Shown piece after piece: positions 2,598 through 22,278 of a stretch of DNA of 24,000 nucleotides (its first letter is position 1; every line of letters begins with the position of its first letter). The position numbers and the translations under genes are program-made. Origin of the DNA: Leptotrichia hongkongensis (GTDB lineage Bacteria > Fusobacteriota > Fusobacteriia > Fusobacteriales > Leptotrichiaceae); NCBI RefSeq assembly GCF_041538065.1, contig NZ_JBGORW010000001.1, positions 54,790-78,789 on the forward strand, read 5' to 3'. Under the pieces are notes generated by a model. The model was not told the DNA's origin. It saw only the letters and a program-made list of their open reading frames with translations, and searched no databases.

Positions 2598-3788
2598 TTA
2601 AATTTCCTTTTCTAGTCTCATTTTTTCGATAATATTGCTTGGAAGATATATTTCAATAATGGACTTTTTGCTAGAATAATATTTTACAAAAATTCTAATA
2701 TATTTATTTGAAAATTCAAAAGAGTCATTATCGTTGAAATAGCTGATAGAATCAATATTTTTTAATTTAAAGTCATACATAAGTTCTTCAATTTTTGGAT
2801 AATGTCTTTTAATTTTGTTAAGTTTTCTTGTAAGTGTGTAAAATAGGACTATTGGTGATTTAACAGTTTTTGATACATTTACAAAAAGTTTTAGATTGTT
2901 TGAGGCTAGATTAAGCATAAGAGCCTTTTTCAAATTTTTTTCAAAATCTTTAGAATTTTTGGCATAATTTATATTGTCGTAGACGTATTTATATCCTCTT
3001 TTTGATACATAAAGTACAAATAAACGGTAAATTTCTTCAGGATTGGAAATTTTTTCTTTAATAAGTTCCAGCATTTTATAAATTTTATTATCAAAAGGTT
3101 TGTAGGATTGTTTTGATTTATTTATAGAAAAACTTATTGAGGTAATTTTATTTGTTGCTTTTTTGTGTTCTTTTATTTTTTCATATTCAATTGAAAAATC
3201 TGTAAAAGTATTTATGTCCAGTATAGCTTTTTTTAAAATATACTTTTCAAAATCAAAAAATCTTTCATATTTATCATTTGAGTTTAGGTAAGTTTTTACT
3301 AACGAAACTGGTAGAGTGATTTCGTTCTTATCTTTAAAGTTTTTAATAATATTGTTATAAAAACTGAATGAGAAAGAATCATTCATAAAAATAAATTTTT
3401 CAATTTCAAGAAGGGAAAAAAAGTTTTTTTTGAGAGAAAAGCAGTTTTTAAATTCTTCAGTAAAAAATATGTGACAATAATCAGAATATAAAACAAAAGA
3501 TGAAATGATTCCAAAGGAGCCTGAAAATTGCATATCTGTAGAAAAAAATATATGTTTTTCTATTAAAGCATTAAAAAATGGGGTAAAATCATTAATTGAA
3601 GGAAAATCGAGTATGGAAAGCAGTTCTTCAAATCTAATTTCAGCTTTTTCTAAAAATGATGAATCTGATGCAATTCTAAAGAATAATAATTTAAAAAAAT
3701 TTTTTTCATTTTTTGTTATTTTTTTTGAAAATTTAAGATTAATAGTATTTTTTAAATTTGTAAATTTTTCTGAAAAATAAATATCCAT
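2598..3788 (-). CDS. Rep_3/RepB-like replication-initiator homologue (tandem winged-helix pattern); function in this context unknown
   Basis: A 396-aa ORF. The central segment (FYNNIIKNF...ITLPVSLVKTYLNSNDKYERFFDFEKYILKKAILDINTFTDFSIEYEKIKEHKKATNKITSISFSINKS) matches by eye the signature of plasmid Rep_3 initiators: a Y-x-R-F-x-D-F-x(3)-[IV]L-x(2)-A-[IV]-x-[ED]-IN-x(2)-T-D-x(8-20)-[IV]-x-S-I-x-F pattern. This is not HMM-verified. Confidence 0.45.
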   Translation of the reverse strand: MDIYFSEKFTNLKNTINLKFSKKITKNEKNFFKLLFFRIASDSSFLEKAEIRFEELLSILDFPSINDFTPFFNALIEKHIFFSTDMQFSGSFGIISSFVLYSDYCHIFFTEEFKNCFSLKKNFFSLLEIEKFIFMNDSFSFSFYNNIIKNFKDKNEITLPVSLVKTYLNSNDKYERFFDFEKYILKKAILDINTFTDFSIEYEKIKEHKKATNKITSISFSINKSKQSYKPFDNKIYKMLELIKEKISNPEEIYRLFVLYVSKRGYKYVYDNINYAKNSKDFEKNLKKALMLNLASNNLKLFVNVSKTVKSPIVLFYTLTRKLNKIKRHYPKIEELMYDFKLKNIDSISYFNDNDSFEFSNKYIRIFVKYYSSKKSIIEIYLPSNIIEKMRLEKEI

Positions 3789-13749: not shown

Positions 13750-14016
13750 CTAAATATAAATTTTATCCCTTTTATCTATTTCAACAATTAAAATGACTAA
13801 TTCATCCTTCTCAATTTTTGCAATAATTCTATAGTTTTCAACTCTATATCTCCAAAATCCTTTCAGATTATATCTTAATGCTTTATCAAATTTTTTTGGA
13901 TTATCTGTATTATTAAGATTTTGTTTAATGTATCGCATAATTTTTAGTTTCATAGAATCATCTAGTTTATTTAATTGTTTTTCAGCTTTTTGTCTAATGA
14001 TAACTTTATATTTCAT
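13750..14016 (-). CDS. Type II toxin, RelE/ParE superfamily
   Basis: An 88-aa basic protein. Its C-terminal pattern FWRYRVENYRIIAKIEKDELVILIVEIDKRDKIY is the classic RelE/StbE signature (W-x-[YL]-R-[IV]-G-[DN]-YR-[IVL]-[IVL]-[YA]-x-[IV]...V-x(2)-[IV]-x(2)-R-x(2)-[IVA]-Y). It overlaps the upstream small acidic ORF by 11 nt. Confidence 0.75.
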   Translation of the reverse strand: MKYKVIIRQKAEKQLNKLDDSMKLKIMRYIKQNLNNTDNPKKFDKALRYNLKGFWRYRVENYRIIAKIEKDELVILIVEIDKRDKIYI

Positions 14017-14242
14017 TTTCCAATCTCATTTTTTTTACTAAATCTTCAAATGAAATTGCTTTTTCCTTGTTTAACTTATACTCTTCATAAGCTTCAACAG
14101 CCGATTTGTAGTCCTCTTCATCTTCGATTTTTTCAAGAATTAAATCTAACATTACTTGGTTTAAATTGATATTGTTTTCCTTAACATAGTTGTTTATTTT
14201 ATCTTCTATGTCAGGATGAGCATTTATAGAAACGGTTATCAT
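14006..14242 (-). CDS. Cognate antitoxin (RelB/DinJ or DUF6290-like, ribbon-helix-helix type)
   Basis: A 78-aa acidic protein starting at the ATG at 14242 (MITVSINAHPDIEDKINNYV...), with an SD-like AAGGGTG upstream. The ORF-track start at 14308 adds an implausible hydrophobic extension. The gene order and overlap are typical of relBE operons. Confidence 0.6.
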   Translation of the reverse strand: MITVSINAHPDIEDKINNYVKENNINLNQVMLDLILEKIEDEEDYKSAVEAYEEYKLNKEKAISFEDLVKKMRLENEI

Positions 14243-14339
14243 AAAGTTCACACCCTTTCTTGTTATTTTTGTTAATAAAATTTTAACATAAAAAATAATA
14301 AAAATCAACGAAAATATTATTTCTTATATTTTGTTCTAT

Positions 14340-16034: not shown

Positions 16035-16838
16035 ATGGAAAGTTTTGAAGATGCTGAAAAAAGAGATCTTGTAGGAACTATATCAGGAATCGTTAAAATA
16101 GTTGGAATAATGATTTTTACGTGGAGTGTTCTAATTTTTCAAAGAGGTATTTTTAGCAGTTATTATTTCAATAGTGTTGCAAAAACAGGAGATTTGAAAG
16201 CTGGAGAAATGGTAACACTTGTTCAGACGTTATTTAGCCTTGTTGTACTGATTATAGTAAGTATTATTTTTATAAAAATGATGAAGACTAGATTTGGTAA
16301 GGAAAATTTGAATAAAATAAAATTCTGGACTTTTGTTATAATAGTGATAACTATTGTTTTATTTGCACTTGGAGTGACTTTTTCGATGATAAATTCGATA
16401 GTTAAAAATATTGGGAGTATTTCTTTGAGTGATAAAATTACTATATTTTTTAAAACAGGAATTTTAGAAGGAATAAAAGGGATGCAGTTAATTGGGTTTT
16501 TGTTGACAATGTGTTTATTTTCAGTTAAAGCTTATGAAAATGATAAGGGAAAAAATATATTTGCAATAACCTTTGCTGGCATAAGTTCAATAATTCTAAT
16601 GGTAATTTTTTATTTTGTTGGGCTATTTTTAGATTTATATTTGCTTCAAACAAGTCAAGGCTGGAAAATGGAAACGCTCTCTGGATTTATAAGAGAAATA
16701 ATGCAAAATGCAAATATGCAGGAAGTAGTGTTTAATTATTATTTTTATTTAACATCGTCTGTTGTTGTAATATTTACAATAATATTAATTTTAAATGTTT
16801 TTTCAGATAATAAAAAGAAACTTTATGGAGAAGAATAG
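16035..16838 (+). CDS. Multi-pass membrane protein of unknown function
   Basis: A 267-aa ORF with an SD (GGGGAG) 6 nt upstream of the ATG. By eye there are about six long hydrophobic segments. I recognise no catalytic motif. Confidence 0.55.
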   Translation: MESFEDAEKRDLVGTISGIVKIVGIMIFTWSVLIFQRGIFSSYYFNSVAKTGDLKAGEMVTLVQTLFSLVVLIIVSIIFIKMMKTRFGKENLNKIKFWTFVIIVITIVLFALGVTFSMINSIVKNIGSISLSDKITIFFKTGILEGIKGMQLIGFLLTMCLFSVKAYENDKGKNIFAITFAGISSIILMVIFYFVGLFLDLYLLQTSQGWKMETLSGFIREIMQNANMQEVVFNYYFYLTSSVVVIFTIILILNVFSDNKKKLYGEE

Positions 16839-16939
16839 TTTTAAAACTATTGAAAATATTGATGTTTAATGATTAAAGTTTTGAAAAATGATATTTGTGT
16901 TTGTAATTTACTTTATTTAAAAAAAAATTAAAATACTTG

Positions 16940-16968
16940 TTGACGAATCAATGTTTTAGTGATATACT
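16940..16968 (+). promoter_or_regulatory. Strong predicted sigma-70 promoter driving the small RNA and Abi unit
   Basis: TTGACG (16940-16945), a 17-nt spacer, then the extended -10 TGaTATACT (16960-16968). Confidence 0.55.
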
Positions 16969-16974
16969 TAATTT

Positions 16975-17041
16975 AAGATAAATTGATCGTTTGGATCATC
17001 GGTCTTGTCGTATTTAAATAAGTTATGACAAGACTTTTTTG
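16975..17041 (+). ncRNA. Candidate structured small RNA of about 65 nt (or a terminator-containing 5' leader) immediately upstream of the Abi_2/HEPN gene
   Basis: The 5' end is inferred about 7 nt downstream of the -10 element. Hairpin 1 is TGATC (16984-16988) pairing with GATCA (16994-16998). Hairpin 2 is GTCTTGTC (17002-17009) pairing with GACAAGAC (17027-17034), extendable to 11 bp, and it is followed by a T-run. No ORF is present. Confidence 0.4.
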
Positions 17042-17045
17042 TTTT
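17002..17045 (+). terminator. Intrinsic terminator between the promoter and the Abi gene
   Basis: A perfect 8-bp stem GTCTTGTC/GACAAGAC, plus three further inner pairs, followed by TTTTTTGTTTT (17035-17045). It directly abuts the SD AAGGAG (17046-17051). Confidence 0.6.
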
Positions 17046-17058
17046 AAGGAGAAGGGGA

Positions 17059-18003
17059 ATGAAAGAGGAAAATTATTTATTAGAACAACAAATAGAAATT
17101 TTAAAAGAAAAAGGATTGATAATAAAAGATACGGCTTTAGGGAAGCAAATTTTACAACATTTTAATTTTTTTGATATTATTAAAGTGTATAAAAATTTAT
17201 TTATAGTAAATAATGTTTTTGTCAAAAATACAACTATAGAAAAGGTATTTTTGTTTTATCATTATGATAGAGGGATTCAAAATATATTATTTAAATATAG
17301 TGTGTATATAGAAAGAATATTTAAAAATAGACTGGCAGAGATTCTATCACAAGAAATTGGAATAACTAAACAAGAATATTTAAAAATAGAAAATTATACG
17401 GTAAGAAATAATAATAATTTAATTTTAAATAATACGTTAAAGGAAATAAGAGATGTAGAAGGTATTTCAGAACATCCAAGTATTTTATTAAAAAAAATAA
17501 CTTTTAGCACAACAATAAATTTGTATAATTTTTTAAATGAAAAATTAAAGGAAAAAATGATATATTTTAATTATAAGGATAATGAAAAGCAACAAGCGAA
17601 AAATTTGTTTAGAAATAGCCTTTATATAATTAGAAGGTATCGAAATGAAATAGCACACTCAATGGATTTTATAAATTATAGAGCTGAAAGATATATAATT
17701 TTTAGATATTTAAAAAAAATATTGAATGAATACGGATATATAAAATTAATGAACAAGAACGATTATTCCAAGAGACAAAGAGGTCCTAACGATATTTTTT
17801 CGATGATGTTGTCAGTAATACTGTTGTTAGGAAATGAATTTTTGAGAATAGAAATGCTAAAGGAATTAGAAATGTTTATAAATAAAGAAAATAAAGAAAA
17901 ATTTAAAAGTTATGCTGAAATTACAAATCTTCCTGATAATTTTTTAGATAGATTGCAAGAAACATTAAAAGAAAAAAAGAATAATTACTTATTTAGAAGT
18001 TAA
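17059..18003 (+). CDS. Abi_2-family (AbiD/AbiF-like) HEPN-domain protein, putative abortive-infection RNase/toxin
   Basis: A 314-aa protein. Its N-terminus LLEQQIEILKEKGLIIKD...A...L...NFF and the FLFYHYDRGIQNILFKYSVYIERIFKNRLAE block match the Abi_2 pattern by eye. The HEPN R-x4-H motif RNEIAH, within IIRRYRNEIAHS, lies at 17641-17658. Confidence 0.7.
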   Translation: MKEENYLLEQQIEILKEKGLIIKDTALGKQILQHFNFFDIIKVYKNLFIVNNVFVKNTTIEKVFLFYHYDRGIQNILFKYSVYIERIFKNRLAEILSQEIGITKQEYLKIENYTVRNNNNLILNNTLKEIRDVEGISEHPSILLKKITFSTTINLYNFLNEKLKEKMIYFNYKDNEKQQAKNLFRNSLYIIRRYRNEIAHSMDFINYRAERYIIFRYLKKILNEYGYIKLMNKNDYSKRQRGPNDIFSMMLSVILLLGNEFLRIEMLKELEMFINKENKEKFKSYAEITNLPDNFLDRLQETLKEKKNNYLFRS

Positions 18004-19497: not shown

Positions 19498-21018
19498 ATG
19501 AAAAAAAGAGCTTTGATTAGTGTCTTTGATAAGACTGGAATATTGGAATTTGCACAGTTTTTAAATCAAAAAGGTGTGGAAATTATTTCGACTGGAGGGA
19601 CTTACAAGTTTTTGAAGGAAAATGGGCTTTCTGTGATAGATGTTTCAGAAGTTACTAATTTTAAAGAAATGCTGGATGGTAGGGTAAAAACATTGCATCC
19701 GAATATTCATGGTGGAATTTTGGCAATTAGGAACAATAAGGAACATATGGATACGATTGCAAAAGAAGGAATAGAGACAATTGATTATGTTGTTGTTAAT
19801 CTTTATCCATTTTTCAGGGAAGTTCAGACAGATAAGACTTTTGATGAAAAAATCGAATTTATTGATATAGGTGGTCCTACAATGCTTCGTTCGGCTGCAA
19901 AATCATTCAAGGATGTTACAGTTATCTGCGAAACAGAAGACTATGAAAAAGTTATGGAAGAAATCAAAAATAATGGGGAAGTTTCATTTGAAACAAAAAA
20001 AAGATTGGCTGGGAAGGTGTTTAACTTGACATCAGCTTATGATGCGGCTATCTCTAATTTCTTGCTGGAAGAGGAATATCCAAAATATTTGAATGTTTCG
20101 TATGAAAAGAAATTTGACTTGAGGTATGGCGAAAACCCTCACCAATCGTCTGCATACTACGTTTCAACTACTGAAAATGGAAGTATGAAGGATTTTGTCC
20201 AGTTAAATGGAAAAGAATTGTCATTTAATAATATCAGGGATATGGATATTGCTTGGAAAGTGGCAAATGAATTTGATGAAATTGCCTGCTGTGCTGTAAA
20301 ACACTCGACTCCTTGCGGAGTAGCAGTTGCAGATGATGTTTTCACAGCTTACAAAAAAGCCCATGATTGTGATCCAGTATCAATTTTTGGCGGAATTGTT
20401 GCGATTAATAGAGAAATCGATGCAAAAACTGCACAGGAACTGAATAAAATTTTCCTTGAAATCGTAATTGCCCCAGCATTTACTGATGAAGCTCTTGAAA
20501 TATTAAAATCCAAGAAAAATTTGAGAGTAATAAAATGCGAAGTTGCAAAACCGCAGGATAAAGTGGAATACGTAAAAGTTGATGGCGGAATATTAGTTCA
20601 GCAGACAAATCAGAAGATGATTGACAATATGGAAGTTGTAACGAAAAAACAGCCAACAGAGGAAGAATTAAAAGATATGGAACTTGGAATGAAAGTCGTA
20701 AAACACGTAAAATCAAATGCAATTGTGGTAGTAAAAGACGGAGCGGCAACAGGAGTTGGAACAGGACAGACAAACAGAATCTGGGCAACCCAGCACGCAC
20801 TTGAACATGCCAAAGGAGATTTAGAATCGCTAGAAGGAGCAGTTCTGGCATCAGACGCATTTTTCCCGTTCAGAGACTGTGTAGACGAAGCTGCAAAATA
20901 TGGTATCAAAGCATTAGTACAACCAGGTGGCTCAATTAGAGACAAAGAGTCAATCGAAGCTGCCGATGAACACGGAATGACAATGGTATTTACTGGCATC
21001 AGACACTTCAAACATTAA
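19498..21018 (+). CDS. purH: Bifunctional AICAR formyltransferase / IMP cyclohydrolase
   Basis: A 506-aa protein. It has the MGS-like N-terminus ([10 protein letters not shown]...GGT..L), the KTLHP.IHGGIL motif, and the AICARFT domain (LRYGENPHQ, ...KHSTPCG, C-terminal RHFKH). SD GGAGGA lies 10 nt upstream. Confidence 0.95.
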
Positions 21019-21032
21019 AATTAAACAAATAT

Positions 21033-21061
21033 TTGTCTTTATAGATAAACTGTGTTAAAAT
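21033..21061 (+). promoter_or_regulatory. Putative CRISPR leader promoter
   Basis: TTGTCT (21033-21038), a 17-nt spacer, then the extended -10 TGtTAAAAT (21053-21061). It lies in the AT-rich 130-bp leader between the purH stop and repeat 1. Confidence 0.35.
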
Positions 21062-21148
21062 GCATAAAAAGGGGTAATCTATATCAAAATTTAAGAATAG
21101 AGGGACAATATAAAATTTAAAAAACTACATTATTCCATTATATGATGG

Positions 21149-21722
21149 GATATAGACTACCCCAATATCGAAGGGGACTAAAACCAGAAAAAATATTTCA
21201 ACTTATGTGAAAATTGGATATAGACTACCCCAATATCGAAGGGGACTAAAACTTGTTGAAGAAATAAAACCAAAAGTTTTTATTGATATAGACTACCCCA
21301 ATATCGAAGGGGACTAAAACAATAGTATTATAAATTAAAACAAAAAAAATAGATATAGACTACCCCAATATCGAAGGGGACTAAAACTATACAAAGGATT
21401 CTGCGAATGTCCTTATGGATATAGACTACCCAAATATCGAAGGGGACTAAAACAATATGACATACTAAATATGGATAAATTCTTAGATATAGACTACCCC
21501 AATATCGAAGGGGACTAAAACTATTTGCCTAATCTCTTTATCCATTTCTTTTTGATATAGACTACCCCAATATCGAAGGGGACTAAAACATCTTTTTTAA
21601 ACTTATCTGCACTCGCTTTTGATATAGACTACCCAAATATCGAAGGGGACTAAAACTCGTTATCTGTCTGACTACAATAGCATTGTAATATAGACTACTC
21701 CAATATCGAAAACTGAGAAAAA
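21149..21722 (+). CRISPR. CRISPR array with a type VI-A (Cas13a)-like repeat: 8 intact 36-nt repeats, 1 degenerate terminal repeat and 8 spacers of 30-32 nt
   Basis: The repeat is GATATAGACTACCCCAATATCGAAGGGGACTAAAAC. It starts at 21149, 21217, 21285, 21352, 21418, 21486, 21554 and 21621. A degenerate copy, AATATAGACTACTCCAATATCGAAAACTGAGAAAAA, lies at 21687-21722. The CCCC/GGGG stem and the 3' GGGGACTAAAAC match the Leptotrichia Cas13a direct-repeat consensus as I recall it (for example GATTTAGACTACCCCAAAAACGAAGGGGACTAAAAC). The plus-strand orientation follows from the repeat polarity and from the degenerate repeat lying distal to the AT-rich leader. Confidence 0.95.
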
Positions 21723-21777: not shown

Positions 21778-21963
21778 ATGAAAAAAATTTTTGTGATATT
21801 GACATTGGTATTTGTGAGTGCAAATACATTTTCAGAAACATTGAATTTTAAGAATTGTAAGGAAGCACGTGCAAAAGGATACAAAAATATAAAAAAAGGC
21901 GAGCCAGGATATGCAAAACATTTAGACAGGGATAAAGATGGTATAGCTTGTGAAAGTAAATAA
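21778..21963 (+). CDS. Small secreted protein with an Excalibur-type calcium-binding motif
   Basis: I prefer the ATG at 21778 (SD GGAGGA at 21766-21770 region, 7 nt spacing). A signal-peptide-like N-terminus (MKKIFVILTLVFVSANTFS) is followed by NCKEARAKGY...DRDKDGIACE, which fits the Excalibur pattern DxDxDGxxCE. Confidence 0.65.
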   Translation: MKKIFVILTLVFVSANTFSETLNFKNCKEARAKGYKNIKKGEPGYAKHLDRDKDGIACESK

Positions 21964-21972
21964 ATTAAATGT

Positions 21973-22006
21973 AGAGTTGTTTCTTGATAGAGATAACTCT
22001 TTTTTT
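21973..22006 (+). terminator. Intrinsic terminator
   Basis: AGAGTTGTTTC (21973-21983) pairs with GAGATAACTCT (21990-22000) as 11 bp, including G-U pairs, around a 6-nt loop. TTTTTT follows. Confidence 0.6.
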
Positions 22007-22201: not shown

Positions 22202-22278
22202 GGGACTGTAGCTCAACTGGTCAGAGCAACCGACTCTTAATCGGTAGGTTGTGGGTTCGATCCCCACCAGTCCCACCA
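22202..22278 (+). tRNA. tRNA-Lys (anticodon CUU), CCA-encoded
   Basis: Manual cloverleaf: acceptor GGGACTG/CAGTCCC; D arm GCTC-AACTGGTCA-GAGC; anticodon arm ACCGA-CTCTTAA-TCGGT (anticodon CTT); variable loop AGGTT; T arm GTGGG-TTCGATC-CCCAC; discriminator A followed by CCA. The total is 77 nt. Confidence 0.9.

Follow-up and report, generated by a model that had tools for sequence, protein, structure and literature searches.

A type VI-A CRISPR array without neighbouring cas genes in the purH-Excalibur gap of oral Leptotrichia, probably a remote array served in trans

A CRISPR array lies between purH and a gene for an Excalibur-domain protein in Leptotrichia hongkongensis, within a 24,000-nucleotide stretch of DNA that holds no cas gene. 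This arrangement raises the question of whether the array still belongs to a working immune system or is what remained when such a system was lost. The whole stretch (contig NZ_JBGORW010000001.1, positions 54,790 to 78,789 of the forward strand) is referred to here as the window, and positions are those of the window unless another contig is named. We conclude that this is probably a remote type VI-A array of oral Leptotrichia, located in a cas-distal purH-Excalibur gap, with recent spacer gain and with cas functions supplied in trans. The evidence that bears on this conclusion, and on several alternatives to it, is presented below.

The array spans positions 21149-21722 and comprises nine direct repeats with a start-to-start spacing of 66-68 nucleotides (nt). 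Reading of the sequence, a repeat finder, Tandem Repeats Finder (scores of 325-628) and our own parse agree on these limits, such that all four return the coordinates, and the single degenerate terminal repeat, that had been given in an earlier note made from the window sequence alone. In our own parse, six of the nine repeats are identical 36-mers (GATATAGACTACCCCAATATCGAAGGGGACTAAAAC). The eight spacers, none of which are alike, measure 32, 32, 31, 30, 32, 32, 31 and 30 nt with G+C contents of 6-37%, in agreement with their previous description as unique, AT-rich and 30-32 nt long. Direct repeats that recur regularly and are nearly identical, with unique spacers of similar length between them, identify the element as a CRISPR array in the generic sense.

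The consensus repeat folds into a hairpin with a 4-base-pair (bp) CCCC/GGGG stem and a 9-nt loop (-6.1 kcal/mol). Repeats 5 and 8 (starting at 21418 and 21621) carry a C15-to-A change, at 21432 and 21635, that eliminates the loop-closing pair and leaves a fold of -3.2 kcal/mol. The terminal copy (21687-21722) has 10 mismatches and forms no hairpin. The earlier count of eight intact repeats therefore holds for the number of full repeats, but not for their integrity, since six are identical and two carry the stem-weakening change. The same change in two non-adjacent repeats is seen in the window strain only; other contigs of its lineage have CCCC at the positions matching 21432 and 21635. Gene conversion between repeats, early decay or an assembly artefact could each produce such a pattern.

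The type of the array is indicated by its repeat. The exact 36-mer occurs at 20 loci in a scan of metagenome contigs, and an array of this exact repeat directly follows cas13a-cas1-cas2, usually beside thrS, in loci L055, L057, L061, L065-L067 and L071. In all other Lsh-type loci examined (L014-L022), the sole repeat difference is at position 10, where the window repeat has T (T10) and cas-adjacent arrays mostly have C (C10). Two repeat forms, GACTACCCC and GACCACCCC, are accordingly relevant to array searches. The published CRISPR RNA (crRNA) of LshCas13a consists of CCACCCCAATATCGAAGGGGACTAAAAC followed by the guide (PMC6315463), and corresponds to window repeat positions 9-36 except for one base, with the last 26 nt being identical. 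A Cas13a 5' handle, comprising the 4-bp stem-loop and ...GGGGACUAAAAC, is thus present directly 5' of the spacer. Because the LshCas13a crRNA matches repeat positions 9-36, the + strand has the crRNA sense, and the handle derived from the repeat lies 5' to each spacer. Two further features agree with this orientation, namely the location of the degenerate repeat at the distal end and the direction of spacer gain described below, and the array is therefore of Lsh type VI-A.

Judged by its sequence, the window array is a genuine Lsh-type VI-A (Cas13a) array. The earlier assignment to this type is now substantiated by the exact repeat beside cas13a-cas1-cas2 and by the 26-nt handle identity with the LshCas13a crRNA. 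It is very improbable that the array belongs to a different CRISPR type and that the likeness of its repeat is superficial. Such an assignment might be entertained on the grounds that no effector is adjacent and that Rfam contains no CRISPR-DR family for this repeat, even at E <= 10. However, the full 36-nt repeat is identical in arrays located directly after cas13a-cas1-cas2, the last 26 nt are those of the LshCas13a crRNA handle, and spacers of 30-32 nt combined with a 36-nt repeat fit type VI-A. A type other than VI-A is effectively refuted by the repeat and handle identity.

A related repeat is found outside the genus. When species-representative genomes were scanned with the T10 repeat, matches were obtained only at the purH site of the representative metagenome-assembled genome (MAG) and in Fusobacterium sp. 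PH5-44, a scan that is blind to cas-adjacent arrays because those mostly carry C10. In PH5-44, the 30-nt repeat core adjoins genes for Cas1 and for a 1372-amino-acid (aa) protein that matches the NCBIfam Cas13a model NF038188 (E = 2e-25), a match that falls short of the curated cut-off. Homolog searches starting from this protein retrieve a large family of 1380-1420 aa proteins carrying Pfam PF28192 (Cas13a_endoribonuclease). This family includes L. shahii protein P0156, which is 77% identical to P0017, and its genes in the contigs looked up reside in cas13a-cas1-cas2-array operons. The same 30-nt core is present in two arrays on one PH5-44 contig (L012, L013; NZ_JBNPVX010000025.1), and the PH5-44 Cas13a is only 39-47% identical to other Cas13a-family matches. 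A shared core alongside so divergent a Cas13a suggests that the crRNA handle is far more conserved than the effector, or that it has been exchanged between genera.

Comparison of strains reveals that the array changes in a polarised manner. The exact PurH protein is encoded on 22 contigs, of which those listed are metagenomic and two are labelled human oral, and all 10 of the listed identical-PurH contigs carry an array in the purH gap. Spacer maps were prepared for 17 contigs at the purH site, with the window spacers numbered 1-8. The window itself reads 1-2-3-4-5-6-7-8, whereas the order is 3-4-5-6-7-8 in L003, L004, L005, L009 and L010, 3-4-5-6-8 in L001, 3-4-5-8 in L002, L006 and L008, and 9-10-4-5-6-7-8 in L007. 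Spacers 1 and 2 are missing from all 10 other identical-PurH contigs, and spacer 3 is present in nine of these 10, with L007 having two other spacers in its place. Yet the purH DNA of L007 is 99.2% identical to that of the window, and L001, whose purH DNA is 100% identical, is without spacers 1, 2 and 7. Within the window lineage, therefore, the trailer end is fixed, internal units have been lost, and the leader end is variable. The other repeats are perfectly conserved in more than 10 strains.

An array resides at the same purH-Excalibur site in at least three lineages, whose purH genes share approximately 96% nucleotide identity and whose spacer sets are wholly different. The second lineage is represented by a GTDB-representative Leptotrichia MAG (L011) with nine entirely different spacers. 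The third, a sister lineage, includes the complete genome CP130323.1 (GCA_030644325.1) and GCA_000469525.1 (L028-L032), which carry spacers 20-31 and are polymorphic at the leader end. Additional purH-site arrays with other spacers (L053, L054 and L062/L063) were recovered in the metagenome scan. Positions 7-10 of the first repeat read GATC, a variant form, in the sister lineage, while older repeats have GACT or GACC. Every sister repeat that flanks a strain-specific leader-end spacer has GATC, with five such repeats in L029, two in L031 and L030, and one in L028. This gradient of repeat variants (L029 11652-12364, L031 7111-7620, L030 and L028) is what successive duplications of the first repeat by Cas1-Cas2 would produce, and may be a record of them.

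Leader-end gain with internal deletion is the standard signature of polarised acquisition with deletion. Together with the phage protospacer described below, the turnover at the leader end between near-identical strains shows that the array has, as far as comparison of sequences can tell, recently gained phage-derived spacers. The same evidence upholds the view of the earlier note that the array is probably still functional. The strain comparison that it had proposed has a clear outcome, in that spacers do turn over and five spacer orders exist in the window lineage alone.

Spacer targets were sought as well, as had also been proposed. A search with 31 purH-site spacers against GenBank phages and PLSDB plasmids returned nothing credible; the only matches, to phages of Klebsiella and plasmids of Bacillus and Sinorhizobium, had E = 0.4 and were not accepted as targets. 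Scans of IMG/VR with central 24-mers were empty for spacers 1, 2, 4, 5, 7, 8 and 10. Spacer 6 matches IMG/VR contigs L088 (8395-8426, 31 of 32 positions) and L089 (30 of 32), outside any array. Contig L088 is a tailed-phage fragment encoding terS, terL, portal, protease, major head and neck proteins. Its G+C content is 31.5%, compared with 29.6% for the window, and the nearest counterparts of its terL are in Fusobacterium nucleatum phages (69% identity). The protospacer is located in a 112-aa open reading frame (ORF) just upstream of terS. All L088 genes run opposite to the spacer sense, which would make the spacer 6 crRNA antisense to mRNA of the phage. LshCas13a favours a non-G protospacer flank; the base 3' of the spacer 6 RNA protospacer is A, which should be permissive for this enzyme. 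Spacer 130, from the leader end of the purH-site array L062, matches the major head gene of the L088 phage at 27 of 31 positions and is likewise antisense. These two of two antisense protospacers are consistent with RNA targeting, although the agreement is not statistically meaningful.

The spacers also bear on whether this might be an anti-cas orphan array, resembling those of E. coli type I-F, whose spacers target cas13a, cas1 or cas2 and keep the cognate system out. A precedent for such arrays exists (PMC8616872) and no cas locus is nearby, but none of 37 purH-site spacers matches cas13a, cas1 or cas2 in 1.02 Mb of fetched Leptotrichia loci with up to 5 mismatches. This sequence set includes approximately 50 loci fetched by Cas13a protein look-up, and only phage contigs were matched in it. 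Spacers that do have matches have them in genes of a phage structural module. Given that no purH-site spacer matches cas or other chromosomal sequence in the 1.02 Mb, an anti-cas role is argued against, and we regard it as extremely improbable. Self-targeting was likewise rejected, there being no non-array match in the fetched loci.

The absence of cas genes near the array extends well beyond the window. The largest window ORF encodes 582 aa, and hence none is of Cas13a size. Searches of the window by tblastn with five Cas13a proteins, Cas1 and Cas2 gave a best E value of 0.05, and PADLOC reported only an AbiD-like protein at 17059-18003. Sequence past the window edges was viewed on contigs whose PurH protein, or whose amylase (the one at the window start), is identical to that of the window. 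Downstream, in the approximately 10 kb past purH, identical-PurH contigs encode the DKNYY protein, an SDF transporter, a PhdYeFM/YoeB pair, three TPR proteins and a GntP permease. Approximately 10 kb upstream of the window start, identical-amylase contigs carry genes for sugar utilisation, type I restriction-modification subunits and an HSP70-like protein. In these tblastn and PADLOC searches and related contigs, no cas gene or remnant was found over a span that reaches about 31 kb upstream of the array and about 10 kb downstream, and cas13a is thus not adjacent to it over this range. The earlier observation that 24 kb contain no cas gene is confirmed and widened by the same-lineage contigs. 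The note had also considered that a cas13a gene immediately beyond the window edge would make this an ordinary locus, a case that is excluded because the flanking genes on related contigs include no cas gene.

More distant cas genes were considered through listed Cas13a matches and 10 Cas2 variants. The Cas13a homolog listing covers the best 120 of approximately 222 matches per search, Lbu/Lwa-type Cas13a lies outside this coverage, some NCBI records carry no contig data, and one contig only of the source assembly was in reach of the Cas13a and Cas2 comparison. Within this scope, the results suggest that an Lsh-type cas locus is absent from the window contig and from CP130323.1, on what is an incomplete test. 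Among the places listed in the Cas13a look-ups, no sample was common to purH contigs and cas13a contigs.

The Leptotrichia VI-A loci themselves have unevenly conserved components. In L014-L087 and L052-L071, Cas1 and Cas2 are 95-99% identical while Cas13a is only 58-80% identical. Cas13a is hyperdiverse, with nearly every 90%-identity cluster being a singleton, and the adaptation module is almost invariant. In L072 (8230-9144), L075 (4635-5549), L076 and L077, cas1 is split into two ORFs of 117-120 aa and 163-184 aa, and loci with split cas1 encode the same Cas13a (P0204). This arrangement suggests that adaptation modules may have been inactivated by frameshift in some strains.

These observations bear on the possibility that the array was built by a VI-A system whose cas13a-cas1-cas2 genes have recently disappeared from this strain, and perhaps from a large part of its lineage. 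What is left would be a memory store, inert and undergoing slow decay, which could become usable once more were a cas locus to be regained. Because leader-end spacer gain separates strains with 99-100% identical purH, such a cas loss would have to be very recent. This, together with the perfect conservation, across more than 10 strains, of every other repeat, renders the possibility unlikely, although not far-fetched. As expected of a stranded array, the stretch between about -31 kb and +10 kb relative to the array is free of cas genes, the listed Cas13a and Cas2 proteins map neither to the window contig nor to the sister complete genome, and the two stem-weakening repeat mutations are found in the window copy alone. 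The split cas1 in some VI-A loci also indicates that cas modules do decay in Leptotrichia. However, the mapping of Cas13a and Cas2 is incomplete in the respects described above. A related proposal is that the purH-array lineages, including CP130323.1 and the window genome, are without any cas13a-cas1-cas2, with the array serving as a conserved chromosomal memory locus and the cas module being horizontally mobile. We find this decidedly doubtful. If true, the array would persist and diversify while cas is strain-variable, and the memory of immunity and its machinery would be inherited separately.

The ends of the array were compared with those of cas-adjacent arrays. The GATGG adjoining the first repeat is invariant in nine of nine aligned leaders (three purH-site and six cas-adjacent), and the terminal repeats of purH-site and cas-adjacent arrays have the same derived sequence, ATCGAAAA(C/G)TGA. 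Origin of the purH array by duplication of a canonical array is suggested, but not claimed. No spacers common to purH-site and cas-adjacent arrays were found among the arrays compared. Apart from the GATGG junction and a TCTATATCA motif, the two kinds of leader have nothing in common. Homology of the leader to those of cas-adjacent arrays was therefore dropped, local alignment of the purH-site leader with the six cas-adjacent leaders being no better than with dinucleotide shuffles (best 22/500). A promoter-like TTGTCT-17-TAAAAT sequence preceded by TG is present at 21033-21061 and matches the consensus at nine of 12 positions. The plausible leader promoter of the earlier note thus exists as a sequence match, but consensus matches in this AT-rich region are no commoner than in shuffled sequence. 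The terminator scan predicted no terminator between purH and the array, and read-through transcription from purH into the array may occur.

Several findings weigh against a remote array that is recently active and served in trans. None of cas13a, cas1 and cas2 is tied to the window genome or to CP130323.1 among the matches considered, two of the eight full repeats have lost one stem pair, and the leader is no more similar to cas-adjacent leaders than shuffled sequence is. IMG/VR, GenBank phages and PLSDB contain nothing that matches seven of the eight spacers tested, and the antisense orientation of two of two protospacers is a small sample that would arise by chance alone in 25% of cases. Even so, we consider it probable that the array is served in trans. 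In that case, cas13a-cas1-cas2 would be located in the same genome, and crRNAs would be made and used. Transcription of the + strand, starting in the leader or continuing through from purH, would yield a precursor crRNA, which Cas13a encoded elsewhere would cleave upstream of each CCCC/GGGG hairpin. The resulting crRNAs would each carry the 5' repeat-derived handle followed by a 30-32-nt guide, and pairing of the guide with phage mRNA would switch on HEPN RNase activity. During adaptation, Cas1-Cas2 acting in trans would insert spacers at the purH-proximal end, duplicating the first repeat each time.

The features of the array and its flanks are compiled in Table 1. The description of the flanks in the earlier note (purH upstream; a 61-aa protein, a tRNA and a DKNYY protein downstream) is accurate throughout, and the 61-aa protein can now be named as an Excalibur-domain protein.

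Table 1. Features of the purH-Excalibur array and its surroundings in the window
Feature	Position	Strand	Remarks
purH	19498-21018	+	Pfam MGS and AICARFT_IMPCHas domains; anchor for strain comparison
Leader	21019-21148	+	purH stop codon to first repeat; last bases GATGG (21144-21148) abut repeat 1
Repeat 1 (leader-proximal consensus)	21149-21184	+	4-bp CCCC/GGGG hairpin, 9-nt loop
Spacer 1, repeat 2, spacer 2	21185-21216, 21217-21252, 21253-21284	+	Both spacers exclusive to the window strain
Repeat 3, spacer 3, repeat 4, spacer 4	21285-21417 (spacer 3, 21321-21351; spacer 4, 21388-21417)	+	
Repeat 5	21418-21453	+	C15 to A at 21432; unmutated in all other strains
Spacer 5 and repeat 6	21454-21521 (spacer 5, 21454-21485)	+	
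Spacer 6	21522-21553	+	Phage protospacer known
Repeat 7 and spacer 7	21554-21620 (spacer 7, 21590-21620)	+	Spacer 7 deleted in L001, L002, L006 and L008
Repeat 8	21621-21656	+	C15 to A at 21635
Spacer 8 (oldest, trailer end)	21657-21686	+	Kept in every strain of the window lineage
Degenerate terminal repeat	21687-21722	+	10 mismatches; hairpin lost
61-aa Excalibur-domain protein	21778-21963	+	Pfam PF05901, E = 3e-18
Terminator-like hairpin	21973-22000		Downstream of the Excalibur gene (terminator scan)
tRNA-Lys(CTT)	22202-22278		
DKNYY protein	22571 to window end		

Other purH sites differ in ways that touch on the array. Locus L033 (352-2895) encodes the identical sister-lineage PurH, but its purH is followed by a 285-aa ORF and rplS, with neither an array nor an Excalibur gene; hence the array-bearing junction is not universal, or L033 is rearranged. 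In L054 (347-1240), the purH-site array is interrupted, after its third repeat and before the degenerate terminal one, by an insert of approximately 890 bp. This insert contains overlapping ORFs of 136 aa and 81 aa for which Pfam gives nothing significant. The contigs L062 and L063 (ERZ773021 NODE_27 and NODE_353) have similar coverage, and one ends in leader-end repeats while the other starts with trailer-end repeats. It appears that the purH-site array breaks short-read assembly, and would therefore often be missing or truncated in MAGs.

Elsewhere in the window, the gene for the AbiD/Abi_2-like protein noted above is accompanied, approximately 3 kb upstream of the array, by one for a 267-aa protein without annotation (16035-16838). 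The same slot in the sister lineage is occupied by different ORFs of 319 aa and 268 aa, and positions 16035-18003 may therefore be a small variable islet, possibly related to defence. A ParE-family toxin and a DUF6290 protein encoded at 13750-14308 (- strand) are likely to be a toxin-antitoxin pair, and a second such pair, PhdYeFM/YoeB, is encoded just past the window end in related contigs (L001 16177-16685). A 396-aa Rep3_C (plasmid initiator WH2) protein is encoded at 2598-3788 (- strand), between alpha-amylase and PTS genes. Its surroundings are otherwise chromosome-like, and the gene is conserved in related contigs.

These results would mean that in at least one clade of oral Leptotrichia a second Cas13a array, distant from cas, is maintained at a fixed housekeeping site, and that this purH-site array turns over as fast as the canonical array. 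Because the cas-distal array turns over too, surveys of cas-adjacent arrays alone would miss part of the immune record. The purH site might also serve as a strain-typing marker and as a source of host-phage links for uncultured oral Leptotrichia. One such link, with a relative of Fusobacterium-type phages, comes from the present analysis.

Among known systems, the closest counterpart is the L. shahii VI-A locus (cas13a-cas1-cas2-array). Its 36-nt repeat differs from that of the window by one base (C10 rather than T10), the hairpin, the loop AATATCGAA and the 3' handle GGGGACTAAAAC are identical, and the two share spacers of approximately 30-32 nt, the derived sequence of the terminal repeat and the GATGG leader-repeat junction. 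In contrast, the window array has no adjacent cas13a, cas1 or cas2 and stands alone between purH and the Excalibur gene, and its leader is not recognisably homologous beyond short motifs. Remote arrays are an established class (Shmakov et al. 2020, as cited in PMC8616872). Remote 'orphan' arrays served in trans resemble the window array in standing alone, in having the repeat of the cas-adjacent arrays of their taxon, and in combining intact repeats with strain-variable spacers. Functional remote arrays are distinguished from relics by a co-occurring cas-adjacent array in the same genome; here, the same repeat is cas-linked in the genus.

Adaptation of type VI arrays in trans has been shown experimentally (PMC8092290; bioRxiv 10.1101/2024.10.25.620265). 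Both the Flavobacterium columnare VI-B system (PMC8092290) and the Listeria seeligeri VI-A system (bioRxiv 10.1101/2024.10.25.620265) use Cas1-2 of type II-C, and, like the window array, gain leader-end spacers with no integrase beside the array. The Cas1 proteins of Leptotrichia and Fusobacterium VI-A loci are also type II-like (TIGR03639, E = 9e-73). The F. columnare and L. seeligeri systems differ in that their effector adjoins the array and only the integrase is remote, whereas both are remote from the window array, and in that Leptotrichia VI-A loci have their own cas1-cas2. Because remote arrays and in-trans type VI adaptation are already documented, the mechanism involves nothing new, and the window array is probably one more remote array of an ordinary sort, not a novel system.

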